Positions 322 through 63,289 of a stretch of 64,000 bases of DNA are shown piece by piece. Made by a program: the position numbers and the translations under genes. The DNA is from a virus. The notes under the pieces are model-generated. The model saw only the letters and a program-made list of their open reading frames with translations, had not been told where the DNA came from and ran no database searches. The stretch spans positions 7,245 to 71,244 of IMG/VR virus record IMGVR_UViG_3300037882_002024; one strand, 5' to 3'. Numbering within the stretch: the first letter of the stretch is position 1; each line of letters begins with the position of its first letter.

Positions 322-2322
322 TTGCGATTCGTTTTACTGTTCATGGCAGCGATGCTGGGGCTGGCGCAACCCGCCCTAGCGCAGTCTGTGGCCATTCGTC
401 CTGCGCCCAAAGATGGCTGGAAATACGCCAAGCCCGAAGGCTTCGCGGTGGCCGAAAACAACGCGCGCGCAGCCAACAACTTTCTGATCGAGCAGAGCAA
501 GCGCGACGAAGCGGCGCTCGCCAAAATCAAGGCCATTGAGCTTACAGCGCTCGACGAAACAACGCGCAAGAATGCAGCTAAGCTCCTGCGCGAGTTCGAG
601 CCACTTGCGCCCTTCATTCGGTTCGCCACATTCTACAACGCGCCCGTGGACCTGTTGGCGGAATGGCGCTCTGACTTTGTTTTTTCTCTCAACCATTTGC
701 ATCGCAAGCAGTCGCTGGTATTGCCCGTGGATGTGCCGGGCACCGAAGGCCGCTTGGTGTGGTGGGATATTCGCGACGCCGGATGGTCGATTGCCGCTGT
801 GCAGGCCGCCTTCGAGCGCGAGCCATTTTGCTTGGCGCCTCACCTACTTGGGGAAACCGCCGCGCGGATGAATCTGCTGCTGGGACTAAAGAATTTTAGT
901 CAAACGCGGCTGCATTGCCTTGGCATGGTGCGCGCCGATTGGCTCATTCGTGAGACAGGCGAGACGCTGCGCAGCACAACCTATTACGACCTGTTCTTTG
1001 CGCCGGAGCGCTTCCCTGAGCTTCCGGGCGCCAAAGGTGGCGATCCGTTTACCGTGGCGCAGGCGCTCGTGCCGGGCCTCAAGCGCCCCAAGGTCAAGCG
1101 CCTTGTGCAAGTCGAGGCCATCGAGAAAGAAACCAAGTGGGAGCCTTACAAGCACACTGGTGGCAAGCTACCGGGCTTCGGCGACAAGGAATACCCGCCC
1201 GGCATGTACGAGCTACCGCGCGAGGTTGAAAAGAAAGTTGTCAAAACGGAAGTGCGCGAGGTTGACGATACTTCACCATCCACGGTCATTGTCCCAAATG
1301 TGCCGCGCGTCTTGAAGGGACTGGGGAGTGCCAACGCCAAGGGGCAGGCTGTCGTAGACTTTCCTCAGAACGAAGGCGAATGGGAGAAGGCCTTCGGCGT
1401 CGATAAGGTCAAGGAGCTACAGAAGGCGCAGGCGCTTGACCTTGAGAACGGCGCCGTCGTGGATGGCTTCGAGGCAGGCGGAAGCATTGTTGCGCGCCAA
1501 AATCGGCTGCTGCTGCGCCTGCCTGCGGTCACAGGAAAAAAATCCAGCTATTACTGGAAGACGTTCGATGCCGACAAGACGCTCGCCGAGCAGAACTATT
1601 TTCAAACGCTTGTCTTCGACTTCAAGTTTAAGGCGGGCGAAGTCATCGCCTCGACGCCTTGTGGCGCACAGGCCTACGGACTGTTCAACAACAAAGGCGA
1701 GCGCGCCGAGTTCGTGCCCGAAGAGCTTGCTATTGATCGCACCGACAAGTACGACCATCGCGTGCGCAACCCCGGCTCGTGCATTGTGTGCCACACGTCA
1801 GGCATCAATGCGCCCGATGACCTTGTCAACAAGTTTTTCAAGCAGGGCGGCATATTCAGCGCCCTGTCGAAAGAAAAGCAAGACAAGGTGAAGACCTACT
1901 TTGTGAAGTGGGAAACGAAGCTACGCGCCGACCAAGAATCGTATGCGGAGTTCGTGAAAGACACCACGAAGCGCACGCCTGCACAGAATGCCTCGTCGTA
2001 TGCGTCGATGCGTGAGTATTACGACGATCCAGTGACGTTGGTGAAAGCGGCCGTGGAGCTAGGAACAACCACGCGCGTCGTGCGTATCTTAGCGCGCAAG
2101 AGCGCCGAAGCGCGCGTTGTGTCCCAAGCCCTCTTGCGACCGTTCCCGGTTCCTCGTACAACATGGGACGGGGAAGTTTTTCCCGTGATGATTCTTCTGA
2201 TGGATGCCTTCCGGTCGGCAGAGATACCGCCCGAAGCGCTCAACGATGAAGAAAGGCTCGCAGAGCTTATCGAGAAAGCGCTGCAAAAACTTAGTAAGCC
2301 GCAAGGCAAGGAAGAAAAATGA
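322..2322 (+). CDS. exported 666-aa protein with a single CxxCH heme c motif (uncharacterised planctomycete-type family)
   Basis: TTG start after AAGGGG RBS; Sec signal peptide ending ALA-Q; GEVIASTPCGAQAYGLFNNKGER...VRNPGSCIVCHTSG. Confidence 0.7.
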   Translation: MRFVLLFMAAMLGLAQPALAQSVAIRPAPKDGWKYAKPEGFAVAENNARAANNFLIEQSKRDEAALAKIKAIELTALDETTRKNAAKLLREFEPLAPFIRFATFYNAPVDLLAEWRSDFVFSLNHLHRKQSLVLPVDVPGTEGRLVWWDIRDAGWSIAAVQAAFEREPFCLAPHLLGETAARMNLLLGLKNFSQTRLHCLGMVRADWLIRETGETLRSTTYYDLFFAPERFPELPGAKGGDPFTVAQALVPGLKRPKVKRLVQVEAIEKETKWEPYKHTGGKLPGFGDKEYPPGMYELPREVEKKVVKTEVREVDDTSPSTVIVPNVPRVLKGLGSANAKGQAVVDFPQNEGEWEKAFGVDKVKELQKAQALDLENGAVVDGFEAGGSIVARQNRLLLRLPAVTGKKSSYYWKTFDADKTLAEQNYFQTLVFDFKFKAGEVIASTPCGAQAYGLFNNKGERAEFVPEELAIDRTDKYDHRVRNPGSCIVCHTSGINAPDDLVNKFFKQGGIFSALSKEKQDKVKTYFVKWETKLRADQESYAEFVKDTTKRTPAQNASSYASMREYYDDPVTLVKAAVELGTTTRVVRILARKSAEARVVSQALLRPFPVPRTTWDGEVFPVMILLMDAFRSAEIPPEALNDEERLAELIEKALQKLSKPQGKEEK

Positions 2323-3008
2323 TTCGAGCCAAGCTGTTTTGTTTTGTGTCCTGCGCACTGGCGTTCGGGGCATTCATGTTGCCCGGCGACGCGTTGGCGC
2401 AGAATTGCGCTTGTGGCCAGCGTGTTGTTGTGCAGCCGTCGTATAGCGCGCCCGTGACCTATGTGGCACCGGTGGTGCAGCACGCGCCCTATGTGCCGCA
2501 GCAGGCGTTACGTGAAGTCTTTTACATTCCGACGCCGCAGTTAGTGCAAGCGCGTACCGATTATTCCTTCACGGTGCGCGACGAGGATTATGAGAAAAAT
2601 CGTGACGCGCTCTTGGTCGATGCCATCGTGGGTCGTATCATGCAGCTACAGCAAAAGCAAGCGGTGCCGTTGCAGCAAAATCCGCCCGCGCCTTCTGCAA
2701 GTATCCCTTCGGGAAGCGTTCCATTGGTGGCGGCACCACAGGCGAGCAAAAAGGGCGCGCCTGTTGGCCATGTCCCATCCGCAGCCGTGACGAAAATTTT
2801 CGCCGACCGCTGCAATCGTTGCCACGGCGACAACGGCATTGTTCGCGCAGGCCTGAACCTCACGAACCCGGCGAGCCTCACTTTGGAAGATTGGGCCGCA
2901 TGTCATTCGACCTGCGCCGCTCAAGACATGCCGAAGGACGACCGCCCGCTTTCGTCTGAGGAGCTAACGGCGTTGTTCGCCGAGTACAAGGCTGCGAAGA
3001 AAAAATGA
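2319..3008 (+). CDS. exported protein with C-terminal planctomycete-type cytochrome c domain
   Basis: Signal peptide (ALA-Q); KIFADRCNRCHGDNG..AGLNL and distal DMPK Met-ligand-like motif; ATGA overlap with upstream gene. Confidence 0.75.
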   Translation: MIRAKLFCFVSCALAFGAFMLPGDALAQNCACGQRVVVQPSYSAPVTYVAPVVQHAPYVPQQALREVFYIPTPQLVQARTDYSFTVRDEDYEKNRDALLVDAIVGRIMQLQQKQAVPLQQNPPAPSASIPSGSVPLVAAPQASKKGAPVGHVPSAAVTKIFADRCNRCHGDNGIVRAGLNLTNPASLTLEDWAACHSTCAAQDMPKDDRPLSSEELTALFAEYKAAKKK

Positions 3009-3046
3009 GCCGCAAGGTGTGGCTCAAAGGTAGTTGAGGGAATAGC

Positions 3047-3619
3047 ATGAAACACGTTCTTTTGGCGCTCATGGTTACCGCGCTGGCGGTCATGGGCAGC
3101 AGCAAAGCCCATGCGGGGGACTGCGCCACGGGTGCGCTGGTGGCTCCGCAGATTCAGTACCAGCCGATCCAGACGATCCAGTTGCAGCAAGTGCAGCCGG
3201 TCGTTCATCACGTGCAGACTGTCCAGCCCGTGATCGTGCAACAACAAGTGTCGCCGCAGCAATACTTCCGCGCGCGCACCTACGCACCGGCCCAGCCGGT
3301 TATCTTGCAGCAACAAGCGCCCGTCGTCCACCAGCGGCAGTTCGCGCAAGTGCAGCAACAACAATTTTACCAACAAGCGCAACCGATCTATGCGCAACCT
3401 CAGCGCCAAGTTTTCGGCCAACGCCAAGCCTTCCGGCAGCCGCAGCGCCAAGCGTTGGGGGCAGGCAATAACGTGCTAGGTGGCTTGCTCAGCCCCCAAG
3501 GCATCTTGACTATCGGCGGCGCCGCTCTTGGCGCGTCTCTGTCTGGCGGCTTGGGAGCGCCCGCAGGGGCAGCGATTGGCGCGGGCCTTGGCCAGATCAT
3601 CGGCGGCTTGGGCCGGTAA
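3047..3619 (+). CDS. exported Gln-rich low-complexity protein with C-terminal glycine-zipper-like segment
   Basis: GAGGG RBS; signal peptide (AHA-G); Q/V/P-rich core; GGAALGASLSGGLGAPAGAAIGAGLG tail. Confidence 0.65.
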   Translation: MKHVLLALMVTALAVMGSSKAHAGDCATGALVAPQIQYQPIQTIQLQQVQPVVHHVQTVQPVIVQQQVSPQQYFRARTYAPAQPVILQQQAPVVHQRQFAQVQQQQFYQQAQPIYAQPQRQVFGQRQAFRQPQRQALGAGNNVLGGLLSPQGILTIGGAALGASLSGGLGAPAGAAIGAGLGQIIGGLGR

Positions 3620-3729: not shown

Positions 3730-3791
3730 ACCCTCACAAGGCAAGCACAACGCAAGCCAACTAAAAAGTTTTAGTCACACCGAGGCAGGCC

Positions 3792-6474: not shown

Positions 6475-6498
6475 CTAAAAAATTTTAGCGAGAGGATT

Positions 6499-7131
6499 AT
6501 GGCCAAGAAAAAGAAAGCCGAAAATGCAGCGCCCGTAGACGCTGTGCAGCCGCCCGCCTTGCCTGCGCTGAACGACCCAAAGTTGGCGCATATCATTGCG
6601 CCCCTGCGTCAATTCGCGGTGCGCGCCGACTCGCTCGTGCATGATCCCACGAACGCGCGCGTTCATGGCGAGCGCAACCTGCAAGCAATCTGCGACTCAC
6701 TGAAGCGCTTCGGGCAGGACCAGCCGCTCGTTGTGCAGCGTCAAGGGATGATTGTTCGCAAGGGGAACGGGCGCCTTGAGGCTGCGCGCGCAATGGGCTG
6801 GGAGTACGTCGCCGCCGTGGTAGTCGAAGAGAGTGATTGGGAAGCTGTGGCGCGCGCGCTGGCCGACAACAGATCGGCAGAGCTAGCGCAATGGGATACC
6901 ACTGTTCTCGGCACCCTGTTCGAGAATCTCAAGCAGCGTGGCGTCAAGCATACCGATCTTGGATGGCAGCCAGAAGAGATTGATATGATTTCCTTCGGAG
7001 CAGGTGGCGCAGAAGGCGATTCGGTTGTACGTGATGCTTCGCCGCCTGACTCGTTCCCCGAAGTTGACGAGAATATCAGGACGGATCATGAGTGCCCGAA
7101 ATGCGGCTACAGGTACTCAGGGGGGATATAG
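6499..7131 (+). CDS. ParB N-terminal-domain protein with C-terminal Zn-ribbon
   Basis: DPTNARVH...SLKRFGQDQPLVV...GNGRLEAARAMGW...ADNRSAELAQWD; ends HECPKCGYRYSG. Confidence 0.8.
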   Translation: MAKKKKAENAAPVDAVQPPALPALNDPKLAHIIAPLRQFAVRADSLVHDPTNARVHGERNLQAICDSLKRFGQDQPLVVQRQGMIVRKGNGRLEAARAMGWEYVAAVVVEESDWEAVARALADNRSAELAQWDTTVLGTLFENLKQRGVKHTDLGWQPEEIDMISFGAGGAEGDSVVRDASPPDSFPEVDENIRTDHECPKCGYRYSGGI

Positions 7132-7133
7132 CT

Positions 7134-8285
7134 ATGAAGCCGCCTTATTCTATTCCGTCTATGAGCGAAATTAAAGCCATTCCGTGGAATGGCTTTAATG
7201 TTGCCTCTACATTTAGCGGCTGTGGTGGATCGTGCCTTGGGTATCGCATGGCTGGCTTTAGGGTTGTGTGGGCAAATGAGTTCGTTCCTATCGCTCAGGA
7301 GTCGTACAGGGCTAATTCCACAACAGATTGTTTTTTGGATTGCCGAGATATTAAGCTAGTAAGGCCAGATGATATTTTGCGCCAGACAGGAATTAAAGTC
7401 GGAGAGCTTGATTTGTTTGATGGATCGCCGCCATGTCAAGCGTTCAGCAACGCTGGAGCGCGCGAGAAAGGGTGGGGCAGGAAGAAGAAGTACGAGCATG
7501 GCGCCCAGCAGTGTAACGAGCAGCTTTTTGACGAATATATCCGCTTGCTTCGCGGCTTGCAGCCGAAAGTTTTTGTTGCAGAAAATGTTGCAGGTCTTGT
7601 GCGCGGGACAGCGAAAGGGTTTTTTCTTGACATCCTCAAGAAGCTGAAAGATTCTGGCTATGTAGTATCTTGCAAAGTTCTTGATGCGCAGTGGTTAGGG
7701 GTTCCGCAAACTCGCCAGCGAGTTATTTTTGTTGGTGTCCGTTGCGACTTGGGTCTTTCGCCAAAGCACCCAGCTCCATTATCGTATCAGTACACAATTC
7801 GCGACGCATTGCCGTGGATTGTTAAATCTACATATGACACCAAGGGAATCTTTAGGGTCAAAGAGACCGCAAATAGTCCACACCCGTGTATTACGTGCTC
7901 TAATATGTATCATTTTGAAATAGAGGCAGAAACAGACATTTCCCGCTTTGCAATTGGCAAGGAGTGGGATAAAATTAAAGCTGGCGAGGCGAGCGAAAAA
8001 TACTTCTCTCTCATAAAGGCGCATCCAGATCGTCCGTCGCCGTGTATTTTGGCAAGCCACGGACAGCCCGGAATTGCCAGTGTCGTTCATCCGACAGAGA
8101 AGAGAAAGTTTACCATTGCCGAAGTAAAGCAAATATGTTCTTTCCCTCAAGACTTTAAGTTAGCTGGTAGTTATGCGCAGCAATGGGAGCGCCTCGGAAA
8201 TAGTGTTCCGCCATTGATGGCGTTTCGAGTTGCGGAAGTTGTCCGCGATGAGATACTGGCAAAGGCAGGAAAGCATGCCAATTAA
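7134..8285 (+). CDS. DNA (cytosine-5)-methyltransferase
   Basis: Motif I FSGCGG, IV DGSPPCQAFS, VI AENV, VIII QTRQRVIFVG, X LGNSVPP. Confidence 0.95.
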   Translation: MKPPYSIPSMSEIKAIPWNGFNVASTFSGCGGSCLGYRMAGFRVVWANEFVPIAQESYRANSTTDCFLDCRDIKLVRPDDILRQTGIKVGELDLFDGSPPCQAFSNAGAREKGWGRKKKYEHGAQQCNEQLFDEYIRLLRGLQPKVFVAENVAGLVRGTAKGFFLDILKKLKDSGYVVSCKVLDAQWLGVPQTRQRVIFVGVRCDLGLSPKHPAPLSYQYTIRDALPWIVKSTYDTKGIFRVKETANSPHPCITCSNMYHFEIEAETDISRFAIGKEWDKIKAGEASEKYFSLIKAHPDRPSPCILASHGQPGIASVVHPTEKRKFTIAEVKQICSFPQDFKLAGSYAQQWERLGNSVPPLMAFRVAEVVRDEILAKAGKHAN

Positions 8286-8889
8286 CAACATTCACGCGAG
8301 CTTCCGTCAGTTCGTGTTGCCTATCGAGAGGCTGCGCCCTAACCCGGAGAACGTGCGCCAGCACGACGAGCGCAATGTCCAGATCATTGCCGATGCGCTA
8401 GAGCGCTTCGGGCAGGACCAGCCGCTCGTGGCGACCAATAACTACCTGCTCGTCAAGGGACACGGGCGCCTGCTCGCCGCCAAAAAATTAGGCTGGACGG
8501 AAATAGCCTGCGTGTTAGTGCCTGACGGCAAGGCTACCGCTACAGCGCGCGCCATCGCCGATCAGCGCGCGTCGGATACTTCCACGTGGGATTTTGCCGC
8601 GCTGGCGCAGGCGGCGCTAGCGTTGCACGCCGACGGGCAGGATATTCACGACTGCGGTTGGGCACCCGGCGAGCTTGCTTTCATCCTTCCCGACACGAAG
8701 CCGAAGACAGCGCAGGCGCCTGCGGTACGCACCACAGCGCCGCGCATGGAAGGCCTGCGCCTTACGCCAGAGCAGCGCCAAGCGTTCGAGGATGCCTACA
8801 AGGTGATCCGCAAAATGGTTGGCGGCGAAGTGAGTGAGGGGCGCGCGCTCGAACTCATCTGTGCCGAGTTCATGTCGGGGGTGCGCTAA
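8275..8889 (+). CDS. ParB N-terminal-domain protein
   Basis: LRPNPENVRQH...ALERFGQDQPLV...GHGRLLAAKKLGW; paralogous to 6499..7131. Confidence 0.8.
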   Translation: MPINNIHASFRQFVLPIERLRPNPENVRQHDERNVQIIADALERFGQDQPLVATNNYLLVKGHGRLLAAKKLGWTEIACVLVPDGKATATARAIADQRASDTSTWDFAALAQAALALHADGQDIHDCGWAPGELAFILPDTKPKTAQAPAVRTTAPRMEGLRLTPEQRQAFEDAYKVIRKMVGGEVSEGRALELICAEFMSGVR

Positions 8890-9446: not shown

Positions 9447-9857
9447 GTGTTGCGACTTATGGCCGATGACAGATTGCTCCTGATATGCCTCAGCACGCCC
9501 GGCGCGCAGGCCTACTACGATGGCGCAGCCACCTACGCGCAATGGCGCGCTGAGGCCGAATTGCATCACCAAGAACTACTTCTCGTCGTGCGCGAGGCTG
9601 TGAGCTTTTCGCGCACGCGCCTTGAGCCGCCAGAGTTTTTGCAGCACAGGCTTGGAGAGTTTCGGCCGTCCTGCGTGCTGCACTTCGGCGACGGCAAGGC
9701 TGTGCGGTGGGTGTCAGCCTACATACCCGTGGTGGCCGTGAGTGATCCCGGCAATATGCGGCTCGTGCAGGCTGCGACGGAAATAGCCGACATCGCCAAG
9801 GCGGGGTATACGTCTGTGGAAGAGTGCGATGGGTGCGTGACCCTTCGCCGACGCTAA
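9447..9857 (+). CDS. hypothetical protein
   Basis: ORF downstream of promoter; TAA stop supplied by box 9854. Confidence 0.55.
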   Translation: MLRLMADDRLLLICLSTPGAQAYYDGAATYAQWRAEAELHHQELLLVVREAVSFSRTRLEPPEFLQHRLGEFRPSCVLHFGDGKAVRWVSAYIPVVAVSDPGNMRLVQAATEIADIAKAGYTSVEECDGCVTLRRR

Positions 9858-9877
9858 AATTTTTTAGTGAGCATGCC

Positions 9878-11400: not shown

Positions 11401-11706
11401 ATGAAAGAGATTGAGTACGTGGTGCGCCTGCGCGGCGACCCCAAGAAGCCGTGGAACTATTTGACGAAGGTGCCGACGCCATTCGAGAACGACACCATGC
11501 TGGACGGCAAAGGCAAGATTGCCGAACGCCATGTCTCGCGACCGAACGCAGGCCTTGCGATGCGCATGAGCAAAGAAGACGCCGACGATTGGGTGCGTAA
11601 GGTGTGTTTCTCGCATCCGTGGATCGAAGTCGAGCGCGCCCCGGTGACCGACTTCAAGGCTGCCGAGCTTGTCGATGACCCGTTGGAAGAATTGGCTGCA
11701 GGCTAA
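11401..11706 (+). CDS. hypothetical protein
   Basis: ACCGAGGGAAG RBS variant; TAA stop in box 11703. Confidence 0.65.
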   Translation: MKEIEYVVRLRGDPKKPWNYLTKVPTPFENDTMLDGKGKIAERHVSRPNAGLAMRMSKEDADDWVRKVCFSHPWIEVERAPVTDFKAAELVDDPLEELAAG

Positions 11707-11727
11707 AATAATTTAGTGAGGTTCCCG

Positions 11728-12150: not shown

Positions 12151-12476
12151 ATGGCTCACGTATCGTAGGCAAGCGCGAGCCGATGGCCGACCAATACGGT
12201 TGGGCGTGTGTAATTATCATTAGTCCACGAGGCCAGATTTGCGTGCAGTTTACAGCGGGCAAAGACGAGCTTCATATCCGCTGCTCACAACGCGACCCAA
12301 ACCAAGTTCAGGTTGTGTCCGTGGTGGGCAAGGGAATTGCACTTGATGAGATAGCGGCTATTCTAGGTCTGGCTTGCGCTATTCAGGATTGCGTTCAAGA
12401 TAGCGACATCGAGACGTTGCGGCGCATACTCAAGCGCCCGCGCTTAACCCCGCGTCAGATTGTCGAGCGCGGTTAA
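12147..12476 (+). CDS. hypothetical protein
   Basis: ATGA overlap; TAA stop in box 12473. Confidence 0.6.
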   Translation: MNGSRIVGKREPMADQYGWACVIIISPRGQICVQFTAGKDELHIRCSQRDPNQVQVVSVVGKGIALDEIAAILGLACAIQDCVQDSDIETLRRILKRPRLTPRQIVERG

Positions 12477-12496
12477 AAATTTTTAGTGGAGAGAAT

Positions 12497-14145: not shown

Positions 14146-14346
14146 ATGGAAAGTGCCGATATTAAGGGCAACGGCTGGGGATGGCCGAGCAGGCTGCGCC
14201 GCGACCATTTCTTTGTGAATGGGCGTTCACTATGCAAAAGGCATGTGTTTTACGGCACTTGCCGAGTTGATCTGATGAGCGACCCAAAGCGGTGCGTCGT
14301 GTGCCAAAGAAGGCGCGAGCGTCAGATTGGTAAAAAATTAGACTAA
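14146..14346 (+). CDS. small Cys/His-rich hypothetical protein
   Basis: GGGAG RBS; HFF...SLCKRH...CVVC; TAA stop in box 14343. Confidence 0.55.
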   Translation: MESADIKGNGWGWPSRLRRDHFFVNGRSLCKRHVFYGTCRVDLMSDPKRCVVCQRRRERQIGKKLD

Positions 14347-14366
14347 AATGTTTTAGTGAGAAAAAG

Positions 14367-15844: not shown

Positions 15845-16282
15845 GTGTGGCTAAAAGTTTTTAGTGACATGGCAAGCGCTCTTCGGGGCGCTTGCTCTTT
15901 TTGGAGAGCTACTGTGAGAGAGAATTTTAGCATTCAGATCGAGGGCACCACGCTGAGCATTGTGCCCAACCCTGTGGGGCAGGGCATCGGCTTGGTGGTG
16001 ACGCGTGGGACATCGGCCGCATTCCATCGGCAGATGCTCACGGCGCATATGCGCGGCGCGGTGACGCGCGCCGCCGTCGAGCTTCACTTGCTCACCTACG
16101 AGAGCATCTATCGCGCGCAGTACGACGCTTTCGCTGATTTCGCGGCCTGCTTTGTCAATACGGCGTTTGCAGCCACGTACAACGAGCAGTCGGAAGTGGT
16201 CAAAGAAGACATCGCGGCGCTGATGCTAACGAACATGGCGCGCTCGATTGCGGGGCATTGCGACACGATCCTAAACGCCTAG
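15845..16282 (+). CDS. hypothetical protein
   Basis: ORF between neighbours; real start probably ATG 15869 after box 15851. Confidence 0.5.
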   Translation: MWLKVFSDMASALRGACSFWRATVRENFSIQIEGTTLSIVPNPVGQGIGLVVTRGTSAAFHRQMLTAHMRGAVTRAAVELHLLTYESIYRAQYDAFADFAACFVNTAFAATYNEQSEVVKEDIAALMLTNMARSIAGHCDTILNA

Positions 16283-17457: not shown

Positions 17458-18603
17458 ATGTTCGCATTGGTGGTTAATGACTTCGCGGCGGTGTTGTTCC
17501 TCGTCTGCTGTGCAGGCCTTGCGTACTTGGCCATTATTGGCGCAGGTGCCAGCAAGGGCGTTCTGGAGCGCTGCGACGCGCACAATGCGTCGTACCAGCA
17601 GTTCCATGATCGGTCCCATAAGGCGCTGCAAGACATCGACAAGCAACTAAAATTTCTTAGTGGCCAAGTGGACCAGTGGCCCGAAGGGGTTTTGGTCGGC
17701 GTTGGCTTACTAGGGCTGCAAGCTGACCTTAGCCGTTGGAGCCAACAGACGTTCGGGACGGACGCCCAGCGCGGCCCCATTGGTGCGCTCAAGCACTTGG
17801 CCAAAGAAGCATTGGAAGCTCTGCAGGCCTACGAGCAAGGCCTCGCAGACAGCGAAGCGCTTGGCGCTGTACACATCGACGAGCAGGGGCGCAAGATACT
17901 CGCAGAAATTGCGCTTGGCAAGTTGTCGTTTGAGCTTGCCGACTGCCTTATCATCTGGCTGGACGCCGTGCGGCGCTGTGGCCTTGACGTGTATCGCATC
18001 TTATCTTTTGCCGAAGAAAAGATGGTAATCAACAAGCAGCGCGAGTGGCCCAAGCCTACTTCACCGACGGAGCCTGTGGAGCATGTGCGCACCGAGGCGG
18101 CGCCTGTCGCGGAACAAGGATACCCAAACTATCCGCCAGCGATGGGCGAGTACCTACGCAGCGTTGGCGGCCTGATAATGAAAAGCATGCGCTGCACGCG
18201 TTGCGGGAAAACTTACGGGTGGTGTCGTCGCATTTACCAGCGCAGCAATGTTAGTCGTGACGGCGACCGTGATGGTTTTGTGCGCCACAAGGCCACCGAA
18301 GTGCAGACGACATGGGTTTTCGATAGTTGCCAAGGGGCGCAATGCACGCTGGCCCCGTATGAGTTCAATTACACATACAAGACGGGCGCCTTGCAAGCCG
18401 CGAGCGACGCAGGCCTTTGTACCATCGACGACATCATGGAAGCGTACCCTGCCCATCGGCCTGTCAGCGAGGCCGAAGACAGAATGCTAAGCGGCCTTGA
18501 CCTTGGCCAAGGTTCGCTCCTGCGAGCGCTCTGGCTGGAGCAAAAACAAGGGACACAAGAGGCCAAGCCACTAAAAGAATTTAGTGAAGAGGCTGCCGCA
18601 TGA
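17458..18603 (+). CDS. TM-anchored protein with DUF550-like (dATP/dGTP pyrophosphohydrolase, MazG-like) domain
   Basis: WSQQTFG...GPIGALKHLAKEALEA...ELADCLIIWLDAVRR...KMVINKQREWP. Confidence 0.7.
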   Translation: MFALVVNDFAAVLFLVCCAGLAYLAIIGAGASKGVLERCDAHNASYQQFHDRSHKALQDIDKQLKFLSGQVDQWPEGVLVGVGLLGLQADLSRWSQQTFGTDAQRGPIGALKHLAKEALEALQAYEQGLADSEALGAVHIDEQGRKILAEIALGKLSFELADCLIIWLDAVRRCGLDVYRILSFAEEKMVINKQREWPKPTSPTEPVEHVRTEAAPVAEQGYPNYPPAMGEYLRSVGGLIMKSMRCTRCGKTYGWCRRIYQRSNVSRDGDRDGFVRHKATEVQTTWVFDSCQGAQCTLAPYEFNYTYKTGALQAASDAGLCTIDDIMEAYPAHRPVSEAEDRMLSGLDLGQGSLLRALWLEQKQGTQEAKPLKEFSEEAAA

Positions 18604-20424: not shown

Positions 20425-20635
20425 CGGGCAACAGGATGTTATTTATGCGGCCTTGTTAGTGGCGGGGTTCGCAGCGCTGGTTTTTTTGGTGTGTGCTTTC
20501 TTGGTCATAGGCAGGGCGATTGACAATATCGACCGAGTGCTTGCTGACCTGTCTAGTGTGCGCAGTAAGCTCGACAATATGGAAGACGCGATACAGGCTA
20601 TTCGCAAGCAGGCTAGCGGCCCGAAATTCCGCTAA
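20417..20635 (+). CDS. small TM plus coiled-coil protein (paralogue A)
   Basis: GGGAG RBS; single TM; ends GPKFR at box 20632. Confidence 0.6.
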   Translation: MDNGQQDVIYAALLVAGFAALVFLVCAFLVIGRAIDNIDRVLADLSSVRSKLDNMEDAIQAIRKQASGPKFR

Positions 20636-20765
20636 AATAATTTAGCGCGACAGACCTTCGTGAAGGAAGCGGAAAATTCTTAGCAAGGAAGATTCATGGG
20701 CTAAGGCGAAAAGCGCGCGCGTTAGCATATTCGCGAATAGCATCAAGAGGGCGCTAGAACCAGAG

Positions 20766-20879: not shown

Positions 20880-21122
20880 ATGGACAGCACAAAGGCCTAC
20901 GAGCAGATTCGGCTTGTGACGATTATGCTGGCGGTGAGTTACGCAGCGCTTGGCGTTGGTGTTGTGTCGATCGTGTTAGCAGGTCGCTACGCACTTGGGC
21001 AGTTGCGCTACATGATCGGTGAATTGCGCCAAGACCTGTGTCATGCGCGAAACCAAATCTGCAAACTGGAAGGCGAGATACAGTTATTCCGCTCGCTGAC
21101 GAACGGCCCGAAATTCCACTAA
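20880..21122 (+). CDS. small TM plus coiled-coil protein (paralogue B)
   Basis: GGGAG RBS; single TM; ends GPKFH at box 21119. Confidence 0.6.
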   Translation: MDSTKAYEQIRLVTIMLAVSYAALGVGVVSIVLAGRYALGQLRYMIGELRQDLCHARNQICKLEGEIQLFRSLTNGPKFH

Positions 21123-21201
21123 AATAATTTAGCGCGACAGCCCCGTGATTGACGCCGCAACGCCAAGCGGCTAGAATCCATGTCGCGCTAAATTATTTTA
21201 C
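21119..21201 (+). promoter_or_regulatory. terminase promoter bracketed by a 20-bp perfect inverted repeat containing two boxes
   Basis: TTGACG(21149)-17-TAGAAT(21172); 21120-21139 is the exact reverse complement of 21181-21200. Confidence 0.85.
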
Positions 21202-22063: not shown

Positions 22064-24968
22064 ATTTTGCTCGATGATCGAGCCGCCCAGCGAAGAGCTT
22101 CTGACGCTGCAGAACAAGTACGAGAACAGTTTCTACGAATTTACCAAGGCCATGTGGCCGATCATCGAGCCTGCGGCCCCGTGGGTCGATGGCTATATCG
22201 TGCAGTGCGAGTGTGAGCATTGGGAAGCCGTCCTACGCGGCGACATCAAGAAGCTCATCATCAATCAACCTCCACGGCATGGGAAGCCCGTGGACGAACG
22301 GGCACTCGTCCTGATGGCCAGCGGCCAAAGGAAGATGCTACGAGATGTTGTTGTTGGCGATGCCGTTATCACTCACAAGGGGCGCGCCAAGAAAGTAACA
22401 GCAGTCTATGAGCAAGGTCTGCTGCCTGTGCTGCGCATCATGACGAACGCCGGGCGGGTAGTGCGCGCTGCATATGACCACCCTTTCCTAACGGCAGATG
22501 GATGGAAGCGCGCCGATCAGCTTCGACTTGGTGATTCTCTGGCCGTGGTGTCGATGTACGGCGGCTTTGATAAGTCATCGGACTATATGACCGATTACGA
22601 GTTCCGCTTGGCTGGCTATTTCATCGGCGACGGTGCCACTAAAATATATAAGTCATCGAGCGCTTGTAGCATCACATGCAAAGACGCTGTCGAAGGCGCT
22701 GACCTTATGGCCTGCGCAGCGGCAATGGGCTTTGCGGTCAACCACACGCCGCGCAACTATCGCTATAACTTTTCAGACGGCGCGCGTAGTTGGTTGCATG
22801 CTGTAGGGATTGCTGGCCACGGCTCGTACACCAAGCGCGTTCCCGAATTTGTTTTCCGTGGCAGCAATGACCAAGTAGCGCAGTTTGTTGGGGCCTACTT
22901 TGCGTGTGATGGTTATGTAAGCGCCAAGGGGCGCGGCCGCGAAAAGAGGATGCGAGAGGATTTAGAGTTTAGCTTTTCGAGTGTCAGTCGTGCGCTTCTT
23001 GAGGACGTGCAGCACTTGCTTGCGCGTCTTGGGATCATGATGCGGCTGCGTGCTAAGCGCCAAAAGATGGCCGATGGATCGAGCTACGACAGTTTTTTGT
23101 TGGTTGCCACCAGCCAAGAAGAGGTTGCTAAATTCGCTGATCGTATTCCCGTTCGGCACACAAAAGCTACGCGGCTTGCCAAAGAGAGGTTTCAGCGACA
23201 GCGCTTTAATGAGGCCTTGCACGCAGACAGCATCGTAGTAATTGAGCCGGACGGCGAAGCCGTTTGTCGGTGCCTGTCAGTGGACGACGATCAAACGTTT
23301 ACGGCAAGCGACCTCGTTGTTCACAACAGCATACGCGCAGCGGTAGCGTTCTGCACGTGGACATGGACGCAGAAGCCGCACTACCGCTTCATTTACGCAA
23401 GCTACTCGGACATGCTGGTAAAGCGGGACAGCATCCGCAGCCGCGACGTTATCCTGCATGAGTGGTATCGCAATTTTTGGGGCAACAAATTCCGGCTGAA
23501 ATACGACCGCAACACGCAGCACGTATTCGAGAATACGCAACGAGGCTTCCGCTTTGCCACCACGCCCGGCGGCGTGGCGACAGGGGAAGGCGCCGAGATT
23601 ATCATTGGCGATGACCTTGTGAGCGCCGAGGGGGCACGCAGCAAAGCCGAGAACGAACTCGTGTACCGCTTCTGGACACAGACGCTCGGTAGCCGCGTGA
23701 ACGATCCATCGAACGTGGCGCGCGTGCTTACCATGCAGCGCTTTAACCGTGCTGACATCGCGGGGCGCATGATCGCCGAGGAGCATGGCTACGAAACGCT
23801 CGTGCTTCCCTTCGAGTGCGAGCGTAAGCGCTACTTCCTGCCGACCAAAGAGAATGCTGTTGACAGGCCCCGTGATGCCATCGTGCCGACGAAGTTGCAG
23901 CTAGCCGACCCGGCCTTGATGGATAACCGCAAGGAAGGCGAGCTATTGTGGCCTGAGCGATTTTCGCCTACGGCGGCGAAAGAGTTCAAGCTGAGTATTG
24001 GGGCAGGCGTTCCGGGACAGCTACAGCAGCGTCCTAGCGCTGAAGGCGGCTCGATTGTGCGCTCGGAGCGCTTCCAGCTATGCTACGAGACGTGGATCGA
24101 CGGTGCGCTGCACTTCGTTCTAGGCGAGGCCACCGAAGACACGCGCCCGCGCGTCGTGAAGGCGTCCGATTGCTTTTGGTTTCAGTGCGCTGATACTGCG
24201 CAGACAGCTACGACGAGTAATGACCCGACTGCTATCGGCACGTTCTGCCGCACGCCGTCCGGGGAGTTGATTGTTTACCACATCTTCTGCGAGCATCTGG
24301 AGTATCCGGACCAATGGCCCGCGATGTGTGAGCTACGCGTGGGACGCGCTGCATGGGACCGCTACAACCAGCGCTGGGCAGTGCGCGGGGCTGCGTTCCC
24401 GTGGCCGTGTCCTTTATCGTGGCAGGGCGTCGAGCCGAAGTCTACCGGGGAAAGCCTTATCCAGACAGCCCGGCGCGTCGGGATTGCCTTGCACCGCTTG
24501 AATGTGTACGCAGGCGACAAGCAGCAGCGTGGCGCGCCATTGGTGATGATGTATGAGCAAGGCATGGTATACCACTTGGCGTCCGGCCCGTGGCGCGTGG
24601 ACATGGAAGAACAGATAAGCGAGTTCCCCAATGCAGCCCACGACGACATCTTCGACATCGTGAGCTACGCGGCGATGGAGTGCCAAACGATGGCGCTTAC
24701 CATCTACAAAGGCGACTTGATTTACAACGCTAGCGTTGGCGAAACAATGGCACGCAATGCCGAAGCGAGCGTACCGGACGTGTTTCGCGACCGTGGAAAT
24801 GAGAGGCGTGATCGGTTGGCCGAGCCGGTCAAAGAGGCTGTGGGCGAAGTCGATGAGATTGCAGCTACACTTGCGGCGCTCGAAGCAGGCTACCAGCGTC
24901 AGCAAGTACAGGCCAACGAGCAGACATCGCCGCTTGACGACATCTTGCGTAGGCTGAATGGTGGCTAA
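21960..24968 (+). CDS. terL: terminase large subunit, intein-containing
   Basis: Walker A NQPPRHGK|S split by intein; YASYS, Walker B IIIGDD, VLTMQR, QQRP, nuclease CADTA and FPNAAHDDIFD; start may be ATG 22041. Confidence 0.95.
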   Translation: MADKVSRQRTINEILNPSETPDPLGSPMMAQLLNEFCSMIEPPSEELLTLQNKYENSFYEFTKAMWPIIEPAAPWVDGYIVQCECEHWEAVLRGDIKKLIINQPPRHGKPVDERALVLMASGQRKMLRDVVVGDAVITHKGRAKKVTAVYEQGLLPVLRIMTNAGRVVRAAYDHPFLTADGWKRADQLRLGDSLAVVSMYGGFDKSSDYMTDYEFRLAGYFIGDGATKIYKSSSACSITCKDAVEGADLMACAAAMGFAVNHTPRNYRYNFSDGARSWLHAVGIAGHGSYTKRVPEFVFRGSNDQVAQFVGAYFACDGYVSAKGRGREKRMREDLEFSFSSVSRALLEDVQHLLARLGIMMRLRAKRQKMADGSSYDSFLLVATSQEEVAKFADRIPVRHTKATRLAKERFQRQRFNEALHADSIVVIEPDGEAVCRCLSVDDDQTFTASDLVVHNSIRAAVAFCTWTWTQKPHYRFIYASYSDMLVKRDSIRSRDVILHEWYRNFWGNKFRLKYDRNTQHVFENTQRGFRFATTPGGVATGEGAEIIIGDDLVSAEGARSKAENELVYRFWTQTLGSRVNDPSNVARVLTMQRFNRADIAGRMIAEEHGYETLVLPFECERKRYFLPTKENAVDRPRDAIVPTKLQLADPALMDNRKEGELLWPERFSPTAAKEFKLSIGAGVPGQLQQRPSAEGGSIVRSERFQLCYETWIDGALHFVLGEATEDTRPRVVKASDCFWFQCADTAQTATTSNDPTAIGTFCRTPSGELIVYHIFCEHLEYPDQWPAMCELRVGRAAWDRYNQRWAVRGAAFPWPCPLSWQGVEPKSTGESLIQTARRVGIALHRLNVYAGDKQQRGAPLVMMYEQGMVYHLASGPWRVDMEEQISEFPNAAHDDIFDIVSYAAMECQTMALTIYKGDLIYNASVGETMARNAEASVPDVFRDRGNERRDRLAEPVKEAVGEVDEIAATLAALEAGYQRQQVQANEQTSPLDDILRRLNGG
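22287..23327 (+). mobile_element. 347-aa intein with LAGLIDADG homing endonuclease (class-3-like, Pro start)
   Basis: Begins PVDERALV right after the Walker A Lys; block B AAYDHPF; LAGYFIGDG and FVGAYFACDG; block F CRCLSV; ends VVHN followed by Ser. Confidence 0.92.
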
Positions 24969-24991
24969 AATAATTTAGTAACGAGGGCACT

Positions 24992-26202: not shown

Positions 26203-26233
26203 CACGCGGCTAAAATCTTTTAGTGAGCAGTCG

Positions 26234-37784: not shown

Positions 37785-37845
37785 CTAAAAATTGTTGACG
37801 CTGCAGGGCTGCACTGAGATAATGACAGTCACTAAAAATTTTTAG
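37785..37845 (+). promoter_or_regulatory. cassette-type promoter with box at the transcription start
   Basis: AAAAATTG-TTGACG(37795)-17-GATAAT; box 37832. Confidence 0.7.
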
Positions 37846-41640: not shown

Positions 41641-41703
41641 CTAAATTATTTTAGTCGCTTTCAAAAAAAAATAGTTGACAGAGCAACCAGTCTCGGCTAT
41701 AGT
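41641..41703 (+). promoter_or_regulatory. box plus cassette promoter
   Basis: Box 41641, A-tract-TAG-TTGACA(41675)-17-TATAGT; ACCGAGGCAAG 41745. Confidence 0.9.
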
Positions 41704-42016: not shown

Positions 42017-42075
42017 CGTAAACAAGCCAACAAGGCCACTAAAAAATTTTAGTGGCCTTTACTCAGGAGCAAGAA

Positions 42076-43119: not shown

Positions 43120-43166
43120 CCTAAAATCTTGTAGTCGCCCTTCCTCAATGAACCGGAGCCAGTGCA

Positions 43167-43685
43167 ATGCCTTTTCACTTTGACGAATCGGAGCAAGACA
43201 CGCGCGGCGGGCGTGGCAAGACAACGCGCCGCAAGGGCACCAAAACCAATCGCGGGCCATACGGCCTGTGGCTCGCGCAGTGCAAAGAAGAGGACGCGCC
43301 CCGCTTGGCTGCCGAGAAGGCCGCGCGGCTGGAGCAAGAGCGCTTGGCCAAGATCGAGCGCGAGCGCGTGACGGACGAGTGCCTTGCGCTGGAGCCTTTT
43401 ATCCGTTACGGCGTCTACGAGACGCATACGCGAGCCACGAACGTAGCCGGTTACGCGCTTCGCGGAGACGTGTTCACGATGACAGTACGAACGGGGCTGT
43501 ACGAGGCAGAGGCCGAAGCAATCGGCATGGTTGAATTGGCCTTGCGGTACAAAGAGCAAGGCAAGTGGCCTCGTGACGGATCGACCTACGAAGTGCGTGC
43601 TGTGCTGTGCAAGTGGCGCGTTCATGCCGTGACGAAAAAAGGCGAGCGCCACATCAGCATCAAGCCCGTCGATGAGCAAAACTAA
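43167..43685 (+). CDS. hypothetical protein
   Basis: GGAG RBS; TAA stop in box 43682. Confidence 0.6.
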   Translation: MPFHFDESEQDTRGGRGKTTRRKGTKTNRGPYGLWLAQCKEEDAPRLAAEKAARLEQERLAKIERERVTDECLALEPFIRYGVYETHTRATNVAGYALRGDVFTMTVRTGLYEAEAEAIGMVELALRYKEQGKWPRDGSTYEVRAVLCKWRVHAVTKKGERHISIKPVDEQN

Positions 43686-43713
43686 AATAATTTAGTCGCC
43701 CGGAGCAACTGCG

Positions 43714-44671: not shown

Positions 44672-45046
44672 ATGTCCGAGAACAAGTCCGAACCTATGTG
44701 CATCCTCATCACCTACTCGCTGTGCAAGGCCACGCTGCGGGGCCTCACGGTAGCCAACTCGGAGCGCGACCTACGCAACAAAATGGGCATGCGAATCGAG
44801 AACGAGTGCTGGGGCACGCTCTGCCCGGTTTCCGCGCACGTCGAACTGGATTTTAACCGCGACGAAGACAAGATCACGGTAGACATCACGGACGTGGACA
44901 GCGTCGCGTTGGCGCGGTGGCTGACGGCCGATGAATGCAATCTGAGCTACCTGAAAGACCTAACCAAATCCGCGCAAGTGGCCATGCTGGAGTTCATCGC
45001 GGAACAACTTGGAGAGCTACGCGTAGACGACAACGCAGACGACTAA
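44672..45046 (+). CDS. acidic hypothetical protein
   Basis: GGAG RBS; TAA stop in box 45043. Confidence 0.65.
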   Translation: MSENKSEPMCILITYSLCKATLRGLTVANSERDLRNKMGMRIENECWGTLCPVSAHVELDFNRDEDKITVDITDVDSVALARWLTADECNLSYLKDLTKSAQVAMLEFIAEQLGELRVDDNADD

Positions 45047-45104
45047 ATTATTTTAGCCGCTTGTCAGAAAAGAAGTTGACAAGCGGCCGTCCGCCCGCTA
45101 TATT
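45043..45104 (+). promoter_or_regulatory. box plus cassette promoter
   Basis: Box 45043, AAAAGAAG-TTGACA(45076)-17-TATATT; GTCGCCCAA leader; ACCGAGGCAAG 45128. Confidence 0.9.
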
Positions 45105-45884: not shown

Positions 45885-45929
45885 AAAAAATAGTTGACGA
45901 CGTCCGCGCAGCAGGCTAAAGTATTTTAG
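45885..45929 (+). promoter_or_regulatory. cassette promoter with box overlapping the -10
   Basis: AAAAAAATAG-TTGACG(45894)-17-TAAAGT; -10 lies inside box 45916; ACCGAGGCAAG 45948. Confidence 0.85.
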
Positions 45930-46430: not shown

Positions 46431-46640
46431 ATGAACGAACGATACGAAGAGATGTTGCGCAGCTTCCCGCACTGCGTCGATAACTTGCAGATGCCGACCG
46501 ACGAGCGCGGGCTGATTAAAACAGCCCGCGCACTTCTTAGCAAGCTACGCGCCAACAAAAGCAACCCGCGTCGCAACCACATCAGCGCGCTAGAGCGCTG
46601 GCTAAAAATTTTTAGTGAGTCAAGCCGTGCCTGCATCTAG
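46431..46640 (+). CDS. hypothetical protein
   Basis: AAGGA RBS; contains box 46602 in-frame. Confidence 0.55.
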   Translation: MNERYEEMLRSFPHCVDNLQMPTDERGLIKTARALLSKLRANKSNPRRNHISALERWLKIFSESSRACI

Positions 46641-48639: not shown

Positions 48640-48704
48640 TAGACAGCGCGCAGGCCCCCCGCTAAAATCAAGTCGTCGCACCGGCAGCGACTAAAATAAT
48701 TTAG
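48640..48704 (+). promoter_or_regulatory. portal-operon promoter with downstream box
   Basis: TAGACA(48640)-17-TAAAAT(48663); box 48691 just before the RBS. Confidence 0.65.
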
Positions 48705-52365: not shown

Positions 52366-52412
52366 CACGGAGCAAAACGCCGTGTAGGGTGAAGCTAGCT
52401 AAAATTTTTTAG
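52362..52412 (+). promoter_or_regulatory. prohead-protease promoter with box at the start site
   Basis: TTGACA(52362)-17-TAGGGT; box 52399. Confidence 0.75.
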
Positions 52413-54509: not shown

Positions 54510-54561
54510 TGTCAGTGAGTTGTTGACTAAACTTTTTTAGTTGTTTTGAAAAGGGTATGCA

Positions 54562-56147: not shown

Positions 56148-56171
56148 GGTGGCTAAAATGTTTTAGCCACC
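56148..56171. terminator. box embedded in an 11-bp hairpin after the capsid gene
   Basis: GGTGGCTAAAA-TG-TTTTAGCCACC followed by ACTTTG. Confidence 0.5.
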
Positions 56172-60657: not shown

Positions 60658-60835
60658 GCTGTCAGCCTATGATGGCTAAGCGATAAGGATTATCGCTTGG
60701 CGCGGGTGGGAAAAAACCGTAAGATACGGTACGCTTAGAAGCGCGCGTTGTACGAAGCAACTTGATAAATCAGCATTGACGTTGACAGCTTGCGCCTTAT
60801 TCCCGCTAAAATTTTTTAGTCATTTGGAGTCTGAT

Positions 60836-62449: not shown

Positions 62450-62805
62450 GCTTGCAGAGCGTCACCAGCATTCACGAAGTATGGGTTTTGGAGCCAAGCC
62501 GCCAGCGCGACGCCAACGGCGGCATCTTGCTGACTTACATGCGCACGCGGTCATATCCGGCGCGTGTCTGCCCGGTTGACGCAAAAACGGCGGCTGACCT
62601 TTTTATCCGCTCTGTCATCGTCTCGCACAAAATATACCTTTCGGTCGATCCCGGCAACATCAGCGAGAATATGCGTTTGGAATACAACGGGACCGTTCTT
62701 AATGTGACTGGCCCCGTCATCAATGTCAATGGCTTAGATCGACTATGGATCGTGTACGCCGATGCGCGCGGGCGCTACAATCCCAGCACGGAGCTAATTG
62801 AATGA
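62446..62805 (+). CDS. head closure protein (SPP1 gp16-like)
   Basis: RDANGG.......YPARV...NMRLEYNG..LNV pattern and synteny. Confidence 0.65.
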   Translation: MSLQSVTSIHEVWVLEPSRQRDANGGILLTYMRTRSYPARVCPVDAKTAADLFIRSVIVSHKIYLSVDPGNISENMRLEYNGTVLNVTGPVINVNGLDRLWIVYADARGRYNPSTELIE

Positions 62806-63275
62806 AAGTTACGCGCATTGGCAGGGTCGGATACATCAACGTCTACCTTGACGAGTACACGGCTGATTTTGACAAGCAGCTTACCGAGCGGATGCGCGCC
62901 TGCGCGCGCGCGGCCTTTCAGCACATCCGTAGCAAGACATCGAAGCCGGGGCCGGGGAATAGCAGAGCCGGGGAGTACCCGCGTAAACAGTCTGGCGGCT
63001 TGAACCGTGGCTATAAAATCACTTTCATCAAAAATGGTCACGGCTTCAAGATGTACACAAAAACGCCGCAAGGCATCTTCATGGAAAAGGGCGTGAAGGG
63101 CGGTAAGATCATTAGGCCTAAGCGCGGCCGCTTTCTGCGCTTTGTTGGGCGCGACGGCAGAATCCGTTACGCCAAATTTGTGCGACAGGGACGCATTGAA
63201 GCGCGGGCGCCACTTCGCAGAACGCTCATTGAAAGCACTGCTAACTTTATTCGTATCCTTGGGGCGCCTTACTAA
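62802..63275 (+). CDS. neck/tail-completion protein (HK97 gp10-like)
   Basis: Basic; SRAGEYP..QSG.L...; FMEKG; AR.PLR; TAA stop in box 63272. Confidence 0.6.
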   Translation: MKVTRIGRVGYINVYLDEYTADFDKQLTERMRACARAAFQHIRSKTSKPGPGNSRAGEYPRKQSGGLNRGYKITFIKNGHGFKMYTKTPQGIFMEKGVKGGKIIRPKRGRFLRFVGRDGRIRYAKFVRQGRIEARAPLRRTLIESTANFIRILGAPY

Positions 63276-63289
63276 AAGATTTTAGTCAT

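Follow-up and report, generated by a model that had tools for sequence, protein, structure and literature searches.

A 64,000-nucleotide stretch of viral DNA (hereafter the window; bases 7245-71244 of the 87,710-bp IMG/VR virus record IMGVR_UViG_3300037882_002024, which is estimated to be 85% complete) carries one short palindrome, CTAAA-N4-TTTAG, 39 times over. The palindrome is not a random occurrence: it is built of two symmetric half-sites, lies at gene junctions, is evenly spaced along the genome and is replaced by other palindromes in related phages. We infer that these sites are bound by a dimeric, sequence-specific DNA-binding protein, probably encoded by the phage, and that the bound protein acts as a transcription roadblock or insulator along a one-directional train of genes. 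We rate the chance that this composite reading is correct as about even. Under this model, the palindromes would form a genome-wide set of duplex-DNA sites for a single dimeric protein, each subunit reading the half-site R-CTAAAA and leaving the central 2 bp unread.

A dyad-symmetric element far above chance

We searched for the core CTAAA-N4-TTTAG with at most one mismatch. The window holds 39 copies (29 exact and 10 one-mismatch), the first starting at 886 and the last ending at 63285, exactly as a first-pass annotation of this DNA had reported from the letters alone. The excess over a shuffled background is just as clear: the literal consensus RCTAAAWNNWTTTAGY has 26 matches in the window and none in 100 dinucleotide-preserving shuffles. 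The full 87.7-kb record holds 53 copies, 39 of them exact and 14 with one mismatch, where base frequencies predict ~0.03 exact cores and ~1 one-mismatch core.

The sequence logo is a dyad of 18-20 bp, yG-R-CTAAAA-T/W-TTTTAG-Y-s, with near-invariant arms around a variable, A/T-rich centre of 2-4 nt whose tetranucleotides are seen in both orientations. The flanking positions 0 and 15 are each restricted, to R and Y respectively (AT 18, AC 8, GT 19, GC 6). RCTAAAA occurs as a lone half-site 7 times on one strand and 5 times on the other, approximately what is calculated for chance; thus the element is always a pair, and junctions hold single perfect dyads of 14-20 bp. When viral contigs were scanned with a 16-mer of the motif, the only matches were single ones attributable to chance.

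The palindrome is a junction element

We then placed the 53 copies on a simple gene call. Forty-four are intergenic or straddle a junction, and the motif centre is non-coding in 43 of 53, despite a coding share of 84% in the record. The other nine comprise four in the final 20-40 nt of a gene, two lying 9-20 nt past an annotated start and three in mid-gene. In 16 cases the upstream gene ends on the TAA of the left arm, and the right arm is commonly 4-20 nt from the next start codon, the commonest distance being 10 nt. The motif is a junction element.

Copies inside coding sequence had been stressed in the first-pass annotation, which took them as a sign that selection acts on the nucleic-acid motif itself. 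The seven places that it listed are all real sites, but only one of them, 886..899 (within the 666-aa (amino acid) open reading frame (ORF) 322-2322, where it reads L-K-N-F-S), is an exact copy in mid-gene, and it is the sole one in the record. Three others have one mismatch: 17647..17660 is mid-ORF in 17458-18603, with an alternative GTG start 7 nt on; 27582..27595 begins 9 nt after ATG 27573, with an alternative ATG (27600) 4 nt on; and 30539..30552 covers codons 7-11 of the Cpn10/GroES-like gene 30519-30818 and may be the single copy expected by chance. The remaining three are found at gene ends: 18571..18584 (exact) in the final 33 nt of 17458-18603, 36514..36527 (one mismatch) in the final 34 nt of 35930-36547 and 46602..46615 (exact) in the final 39 nt of 46431-46640. 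These three stand at the usual distance from the following gene or promoter although the preceding gene overruns the site (at 18571, the next gene's ATG 18600 is 15 nt on), as selection on the motif would have it; with nearly all copies at junctions, however, the argument from coding copies was overstated. The recurrent peptide L-K-x-F-S is simply the translation in the only frame of the motif that is free of stop codons.

The remaining junctions of the window show how tightly stop, palindrome and start are fitted together. The left-arm TAA ends the upstream ORF at 9854..9867 (exact; ORF 9459-9857), 11703..11716 (exact; 11401-11706, ATG 11728 11 nt on), 12473..12486 (one mismatch, TTAAA; 12147-12476, ATG 12497 10 nt on), 14343..14356 (exact; ATG 14367 10 nt on), 20632..20645 (exact), 21119..21132 (exact; 20880-21122), 24965..24978 (exact; the intein-bearing large terminase gene 21960-24968, ATG 24992 13 nt on), 43682..43695 (exact; 43167-43685, ATG 43714 18 nt on) and 63272..63285 (exact; 62802-63275, with ATG 63290 of a tail-completion-like gene 4 nt on). 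The upstream stop codon is 1 nt before the exact site 6475..6488 (ORF 6022-6474; ATG 6499 of a ParB_N protein 10 nt on), 2 nt before the one-mismatch site 43121..43134 (42859-43119) and 13 nt before the exact intergenic site 15851..15864 (15380-15838; ATG 15869 4 nt on).

Further sites lie ahead of a start codon at 21188..21201 (one mismatch, intergenic; ATG 21215 13 nt on), 26210..26223 (exact; ATG 26234 10 nt on, for a zinc-ribbon protein conserved in relatives), 36841..36854 (exact, intergenic; GTG 36876 21 nt on), 37832..37845 (exact; ATG 37859 13 nt on), 42039..42052 (exact, intergenic; ATG 42076 23 nt on) and 60806..60819 (exact; ATG 60836 16 nt on, a gene conserved in relatives). The one-mismatch copies 33303..33316 and 39389..39402 are intergenic.

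Sites are evenly spaced

Successive sites are on average 1,671 bp apart (coefficient of variation (CV) 0.56; 53 sites in the record), in keeping with the recurrence about every 1.6 kb that had been described. We compared this spacing with that of random subsets of 53 of the 127 gene junctions. In 20,000 draws the CV was 0.96 +/- 0.14, and no subset (0/20,000) was as even as the observed one. Two related contigs, each with a palindrome of its own (see below), gave similar results: on L123, 19 sites have a mean gap of 1,698 bp and a CV of 0.35 (P < 5e-5), and on L125 the CV is 0.53 (P = 0.02). The even spacing therefore suggests that selection favours sites throughout the genome, not a site for every gene.

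Some restriction sites are bipartite palindromes with an N4 gap, and among the genes of the record are those for a C5 methylase, an N6-methylase-like protein and further methyltransferases. The palindrome might be the recognition sequence of a phage DNA methyltransferase or restriction system. However, its 10-14 specified bases are far above the usual length of such sequences, from which neither concentration at junctions nor even spacing is expected, and we give this explanation hardly any credence.

Related phages keep the junctions and replace the sequence

Each of the nearer-family contigs that we examined has its own palindrome, 14 bp long and of 5-4-5 build. The relatives' palindromes include CTAAGA..TCTTAG, CTCAGA..TCTGAG, GTCAAA..TTTGAC and TAAAACGTTTTA; by contig, they read CTAAGA-NN-TCTTAG in L125/L178 (NCBI JAWVHB010000402.1), cGG-CTCAGA-NN-TCTGAG-CCg in L123/L177 and L124, GTCAAA-NN-TTTGAC in L005, L006 and L136, GTCAAy-NN-GTTGAC in L174/L192 and TAAAA-CG-TTTTA in L126. 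Half-site positions 2, 4 and 6 (T, A, A) are common to the variants and positions 1, 3 and 5 differ, both arms being altered in step between lineages. Closely related phages, with capsids 55-68% identical, thus use four or five different motifs.

The junctions occupied by these palindromes are shared: 5' of the 348-aa gene, of the portal gene, of the protease gene and of the capsid gene, and also 3' of the capsid gene. The corresponding sites in the window, all exact, are 29073..29086 (ATG 29104 of the 348-aa gene 17 nt on), 48691..48704 (ATG 48715 of the portal-C39-MuF gene 10 nt on), 52399..52412 (5' of the prohead protease/scaffold gene, GTG 52461) and 54527..54540 (ATG 54562 of the major capsid protein gene 21 nt on), with the relatives' own palindrome at each of these places, and 56153..56166, 23 nt after the capsid stop. 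A co-evolving pair of site and reader would yield just this combination of kept position and replaced sequence, and stoperators with their repressors have been described as such a pair (PMC6550527). Because the relatives keep the same junctions yet have changed both arms in step, the reader would most likely be encoded by the phage lineage.

The array is not universal in the family. No such array was found in other members, among them the ParB-region loci L175 and L176 and the more distant near-complete or complete genomes G003 (which has terminal repeats) and G005. IMGVR_UViG_3300043256_000348 is an example of an array-less relative; JBQVBM010085235.1 and the Logan contigs SRR32125126_24453 and SRR24319158_2322 also represent relatives. 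A distant relative, L142 (IMGVR_UViG_3300047994_000488), carries at 206-310 five tandem copies of GTTCAC-N3-GTGAAC at a spacing of 22-23 bp; judged by this arrangement, they would be an iteron-like or operator cluster and not a dispersed array. As a separate observation, T-N-A (TAA or TCA) is kept at half-site positions 2-4 in every lineage variant (window, L123, L125, L126, L005 and L174), so that each palindrome contains at least one stop codon per strand.

The swapping of motifs also bears on what the sites might be for. They could be loading or anchoring points that organise the phage chromosome or insulate its transcription, with relatives exchanging site and reader together so as to become mutually blind "address codes". 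We regard this version as rather doubtful. If true, such codes would act like immunity or incompatibility groups without lysogeny; the DNA of the record shows no sign of lysogeny.

A further explanation assigns the sites to the host. No deposited phage was matched by the portal-region DNA (megablast) or by the capsid protein (tblastn), and a single-protein scan across bacterial genomes matched nothing. The capsid has >300 uncultured homologues, many on contigs of 50-117 kb. A planctomycete host is likely, because three contigs with relatives carry the metagenome-assembled genome (MAG) labels Gemmataceae, Pirellulaceae and Planctomycetaceae and because clusters resembling the phage's SpoVG/zinc-ribbon protein are commonest in Planctomycetota. 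A planctomycete global regulator or nucleoid-associated protein might bind the sites, each phage lineage being tuned to its own host. That a phage-encoded binder was not found in the record, that the motif differs from relative to relative, as their hosts may, and that phages exploiting a host regulator are known (for instance through CtrA sites in alphaproteobacterial phages; PMC9437464) all fit this idea. However, host global regulators usually hold their specificity over far larger distances than those separating these phages, with their four or five motifs among such similar capsids. We consider a host binder improbable.

Duplex DNA or RNA hairpin

All credible genes of the record are on the plus strand, so every site is transcribed, and a palindrome in RNA can fold. 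The sites might be junction hairpins read by an RNA-binding protein or an endoribonuclease, by which transcripts would be cut or stabilised into gene-sized units or the translation of the next gene tuned. Such a role would suit their location, behind a stop codon and ahead of the next ribosome-binding site, with the start codon in many cases exactly 10 nt on, and RNase III sites are found at the gene junctions of phage T7. G..T flanks, which allow a G-U wobble in plus-strand RNA, outnumber A..C flanks (19 versus 8), some of the relatives' variants are highly foldable, and the stem at 56153 extends to 10 bp. Moreover, the only nucleic-acid binder that we recognised in the record is of the SpoVG type, and members of this family are reported to bind both DNA and RNA (PMC4959528, PMC11086051).

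We examined whether the palindromes behave as paired RNA. The flank positions 0 and 15 are independent of each other: the unpairable combination A..C is observed 8 times against 7.1 expected (Fisher p = 0.76) and is therefore not depleted. Permutation tests at flank offsets 1-7 found no pairing covariation in this genome and six related loci. The predicted hairpins are marginal here (-1.4 to -4.9 kcal/mol), and across lineages the energy runs from 0 for the L126 variant, which does not fold, through -7.5 for L125 to -14 to -17 kcal/mol for L123 and L005; thus hairpin stability is not the conserved property. Conservation extends to positions 6 and 9, which a hairpin would place in its loop, and wobble pairs are not preferred among the one-mismatch copies. 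An Rfam search matched tRNAs only and no other family. Neither mark of a structured RNA, pairing covariation or conserved stability, was found, and the sites do not resemble intrinsic terminators: their stems are A/T-rich, and only 56148-56171 is terminator-like, with a weak T run.

Invariant arms, a variable centre, flanks without covariation and an unconserved hairpin energy together favour the independent reading of two half-sites on duplex DNA by a dimeric binder over an RNA hairpin. An RNA or single-stranded element is unlikely on these sequence patterns, though it is the alternative that we take most seriously.

Promoter cassettes and the palindrome

Some of the palindromes are linked to promoters. 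The record carries 15 copies of a strong sigma-70-type cassette, GAAAAAATAGTTGACA-N17-gGCTAtAnT, on the plus strand only: at 3696-3740, 5095, 9344, 32750, 34688, 35067, 36543, 40165, 41670, 42794, 44590, 45071 and 45889 of the window and at 350 and 82732 of the record. Downstream of many cassettes comes a conserved leader with a ribosome-binding site, ACCGAGGCAAG-ATG, and these cassettes drive small orphan early genes. Those without a preceding palindrome often have an intrinsic terminator in its place.

In six cassettes the palindrome is centred at -60.5 to -62.5. Three of these copies are exact, are centred at ~-61.5 and supply the stop codon of the upstream ORF with their left-arm TAA: 32722..32735 (TTGACA 32755; ORF 32450-32725), 34660..34673 (TTGACA 34693; 34373-34663) and 45043..45056 (TTGACA 45076; 44672-45046). 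The one-mismatch copy 35040..35053, whose end coincides with the stop of 34769-35053, is centred at ~-60.5 (TTGACA 35072); the one-mismatch copy at 36514 (TTGACA 36548) and the exact copy 41641..41654 (TTGACA 41675) are centred at ~-62.5. By their sequence, these six palindromes and the stretches between palindrome and promoter look like duplicates of one cassette.

Other sites occupy positions typical of operators. The exact site 45916..45929 lies over a -10, its left half GGCTAAAGT being the -10 of an early promoter (TTGACG 45894, 17-nt spacer; ATG 45961 31 nt on). The exact site 3761..3774 is at ~+31 of an early-type promoter (TTGACA 3701), with ATG 3792 of an AAA_5 ATPase gene 17 nt on, and 48691 is at ~+20 of a weaker promoter-like sequence, TAGACA-17-TAAAAT (48640-48668). 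Two cassettes have a site at ~+28 to +31, that at 3761 and a one-mismatch copy outside the window. A bound protein might have extra effects where a site covers the -10, falls within the first 30 transcribed bases or lies at -61.5 of a cassette. Array-less relatives keep sigma-70-type promoters at the same places 5' of the AAA_5 and DUF7192 genes.

The likeness of the left arm to a -10 suggests another reading, in which the palindrome itself would be a promoter peculiar to the phage and active in the middle or late phase: its left half, TAAAAT, one difference from TATAAT, would serve as the -10 for a modified host RNA polymerase or a phage factor, giving leaders of 4-20 nt. At 45916 a TTGAC-N17 promoter does take its -10 from the left arm, no other conserved motif precedes the late genes, and the forward orientation is somewhat commoner (CTAAAAT 29 times on the plus strand, 16 on the minus). 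However, a palindrome would fire both ways, and the genes all face one way; CTCAGA..TCTGAG and GTCAAA..TTTGAC have no -10 likeness; and lone half-sites are not enriched. Many sites also follow a gene with no start codon nearby, such as those 5' of early promoters, and neither a sigma region 2 nor a DxDGD-type polymerase motif was found in the record. We consider a promoter function distinctly improbable.

The duplicated look of the promoter-linked copies raises the question of mobility. Selfish repeats, such as mobile palindromes resembling repetitive extragenic palindromic (REP) elements, or recombination hot spots at module boundaries would need no trans-acting regulator. Identical short boundary repeats could promote the exchange of modules, the record encodes ERF, SSB and an exonuclease, and recombination between such repeats made deletions in Cluster O phages (PMC4351075). 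On the other side, a Y1 transposase of the REP-associated tyrosine transposase (RAYT) type was not found in the record, there is a single copy per junction with even spacing and no clusters, and mobility alone leaves conserved positions with in-step replacement of sequence unexplained. We find this explanation very improbable.

Weighing the proposed dimeric binder and searching for it

That the palindromes are sites of a dimeric regulator had been proposed in the first-pass annotation. The anatomy of the motif fits this proposal, with its arms and centre, its independent flanks, the lack of lone half-sites and the re-specified relatives; its binder was found neither in the window nor elsewhere in the record; the annotation had suggested extending the search for helix-turn-helix proteins beyond the window. 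Scans of ~100 ORFs with Pfam or PHROGs found no helix-turn-helix, ribbon-helix-helix or repressor family, and six-frame searches of the 87.7-kb record found no HTH_3, sigma region 2, tyrosine integrase or Y1 transposase (PF01797). These negative results count against our main reading, and so do several features of the sites. A simple roadblock at the six sites ~-61.5 from early promoters would not repress those promoters. The site at 56153, after the capsid gene, is inside a hairpin with a 10-bp stem (56148-56171, GGTGG...CCACC). At the right flank T is in excess of what strict dyad symmetry allows (GT 19 versus AC 8, p = 0.05; left versus right, p = 0.04), the flank counts of the L123 contig show the same trend of T after the right arm, and this excess in two genomes points to some orientation-dependent influence. 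About 15% of the phage genome lies outside the record.

We considered the nucleic-acid-binding candidates that the record does offer. Two ParB_N-domain proteins, at 6499..7131 and 8275..8889 on the plus strand, stand on either side of a C5 DNA methylase gene (7092-8285). The family alignment shows a ParB_N domain, a linker and a C-terminal CPxCGY zinc-ribbon-like tail, with no recognisable helix-turn-helix. They are poor candidates and unlikely to be the binder, lacking a helix-turn-helix and having homologues in the array-less L175 and L176. The proteins carry a KGNGRL/KGHGRL motif, and the pair flanking the methylase is conserved family-wide, array-less relatives included.

The SpoVG/zinc-ribbon protein, encoded outside the window at 3340-3795 of the record (L121:3340-3795), has a confidently predicted SpoVG fold into which a zinc ribbon is inserted. 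Proteins of the SpoVG type bind DNA site-specifically, and six helix residues shift their specificity (PMC3688583). A homologue in the L123/L177 genome, 21% identical, lies 5' of a 352-aa gene (L177:9481-9870). The array-bearing L174/L192 genome lacks the protein at the syntenic position, and it was not found in five array-less relatives, a result that is uninformative given their distance. It is a weak candidate for the binder. Among the relatives examined, an 80-aa protein encoded between portal and protease (52123-52365) was detected only in those that bear an array; it has no Pfam match, and its structural model, of low confidence (predicted local distance difference test (pLDDT) score 65), is helix-strand-strand-helix. 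The sole DxDGD match in the record is in the protease/scaffold protein, and no polymerase-type DxDGD motif was found. Readings of the palindrome as IHF-like or CRP/FNR-like were dropped as misfits with some of the lineage variants.

Other features of the genome

The record has a G+C content of 57%. It encodes an HK97-type capsid protein and a prohead protease, a portal fused to a C39 peptidase and a MuF domain, a replication and recombination set (helicase, SSB, PDDEXK exonuclease and ERF) and, besides the C5 methylase and the N6-methylase-like protein, further methyltransferases. The large terminase gene (21960-24968) is split by an intein with a LAGLIDADG endonuclease domain. Portal, C39 peptidase and MuF form a single frame of 1094 aa (48715-51999); the portals of relatives measure 813-1157 aa, so the fusion varies within the lineage.

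A 263-aa protein (28146-28937) matches Pfam Acb3, an inhibitor of the cyclic-oligonucleotide-based antiphage signalling system (CBASS), with E = 3.8e-18 and is a candidate anti-defence gene. The Cpn10/GroES-like gene at 30519-30818 specifies a phage-encoded co-chaperonin (Pfam E = 7e-20). From the 348-aa gene (from 29104) to the portal gene (48715) the distance is ~18 kb here versus 2-3 kb in relatives; these ~18 kb hold the GroES-like gene, three tRNA genes and the entire early-promoter gene block, and reflect a rearrangement or an insertion in this phage. A perfect hairpin with a 16-bp stem (GCCGTGTCGATGGAGC...GCTCCATCGACACGGC, 56851-56886) separates the capsid-adjacent gene from an 842-aa gene; the 842-aa gene has no homologue in the related loci examined.

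Comparison with known systems

Short palindromes dispersed over a replicon are known from IncP plasmids, where KorB (a ParB-family protein) and KorA act as global regulators on OB and OA operators. Their half-site letters, TTTAGC/GCTAAA, resemble the arms described here, but the orientation of the half-sites relative to the dyad is opposite, the plasmid operators number ~12, and the ParB_N proteins of this record, unlike KorB, have no recognisable helix-turn-helix and occur in array-less relatives. T7 RNase III sites and bacterial REP elements are likewise repeated inverted repeats between the genes of long operons. They are longer, imperfect hairpins in which structure is conserved and sequence is not, whereas here sequence is conserved and structure is not. 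The REP/RAYT palindromes are imperfect, 20-40 nt long and often clustered, unlike the single perfect dyads of 14-20 bp of this phage, whose record yielded no PF01797 match.

Cluster A stoperators (L5, Bxb1), to which the first-pass annotation had compared the array, offer a closer parallel. Their sites recur every ~1.5-2 kb along the whole genome, in small gaps between genes close to stop and start codons, and from one related phage to another the site sequence co-evolves with the repressor (PMC6550527, PMC9283540). Density and junction position match, as would the proposed co-evolution of site and reader, and stoperators are our model for a block to transcription at the sites. The symmetry does not match: a stoperator is an asymmetric sequence of 13 bp that points along the direction of transcription and binds the monomeric immunity repressor of a temperate phage, whereas the sites here are dyad-symmetric, with no clear orientation beyond the weak right-flank T bias, and the 87.7 kb (85% of the genome) yielded no repressor-like Pfam match, HTH_3 or tyrosine integrase. 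Should the palindromes prove to be transcription roadblocks in a phage without lysogeny, the concept of the stoperator would no longer be confined to the silencing of prophages.

The Cluster O mycobacteriophages (Corndog and relatives) carry 34 copies of a 17-bp dyad, 5'-TGTTCGG-N3-CCGAACA, for which a dimeric binder, but no function, was proposed (Cresawn et al. 2015, PMC4351075). Both arrays have >30 copies genome-wide, invariant arms, a variable A/T-rich spacer and G/C-leaning flanks, with many copies in short intergenic gaps near start codons and some inside genes. They differ in sequence, in spacing and in geometry (arms of 5-7 bp around an N4/N2 centre here, 7 bp around N3 there), in host phylum and in phage lineage, and the present array has a larger share of copies at junctions (44/53) and a demonstrably even spacing. 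Because motif and geometry differ and no deposited phage was matched, the array is an analogue, not a homologue, of the Cluster O dyads. The five Cluster O genomes described share one motif, whereas the relatives here have re-specified theirs.

Taken together, the array belongs to a type of repeat already seen in a few phages, with its function unexplained. What this lineage adds is a motif that has changed its sequence several times and disappeared from some members, and statistical support for an even spread of the sites. It amounts to a natural experiment: the same junctions and the same ~1.7 kb spacing are served by at least four or five sequences, and some relatives have no array. The prediction is that the reader is present only with the array and that its recognition residues change with the motif. 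The closest published case is that of the Cluster O dyads and, to judge by the likenesses above, the closest functional analogue would be the stoperators.

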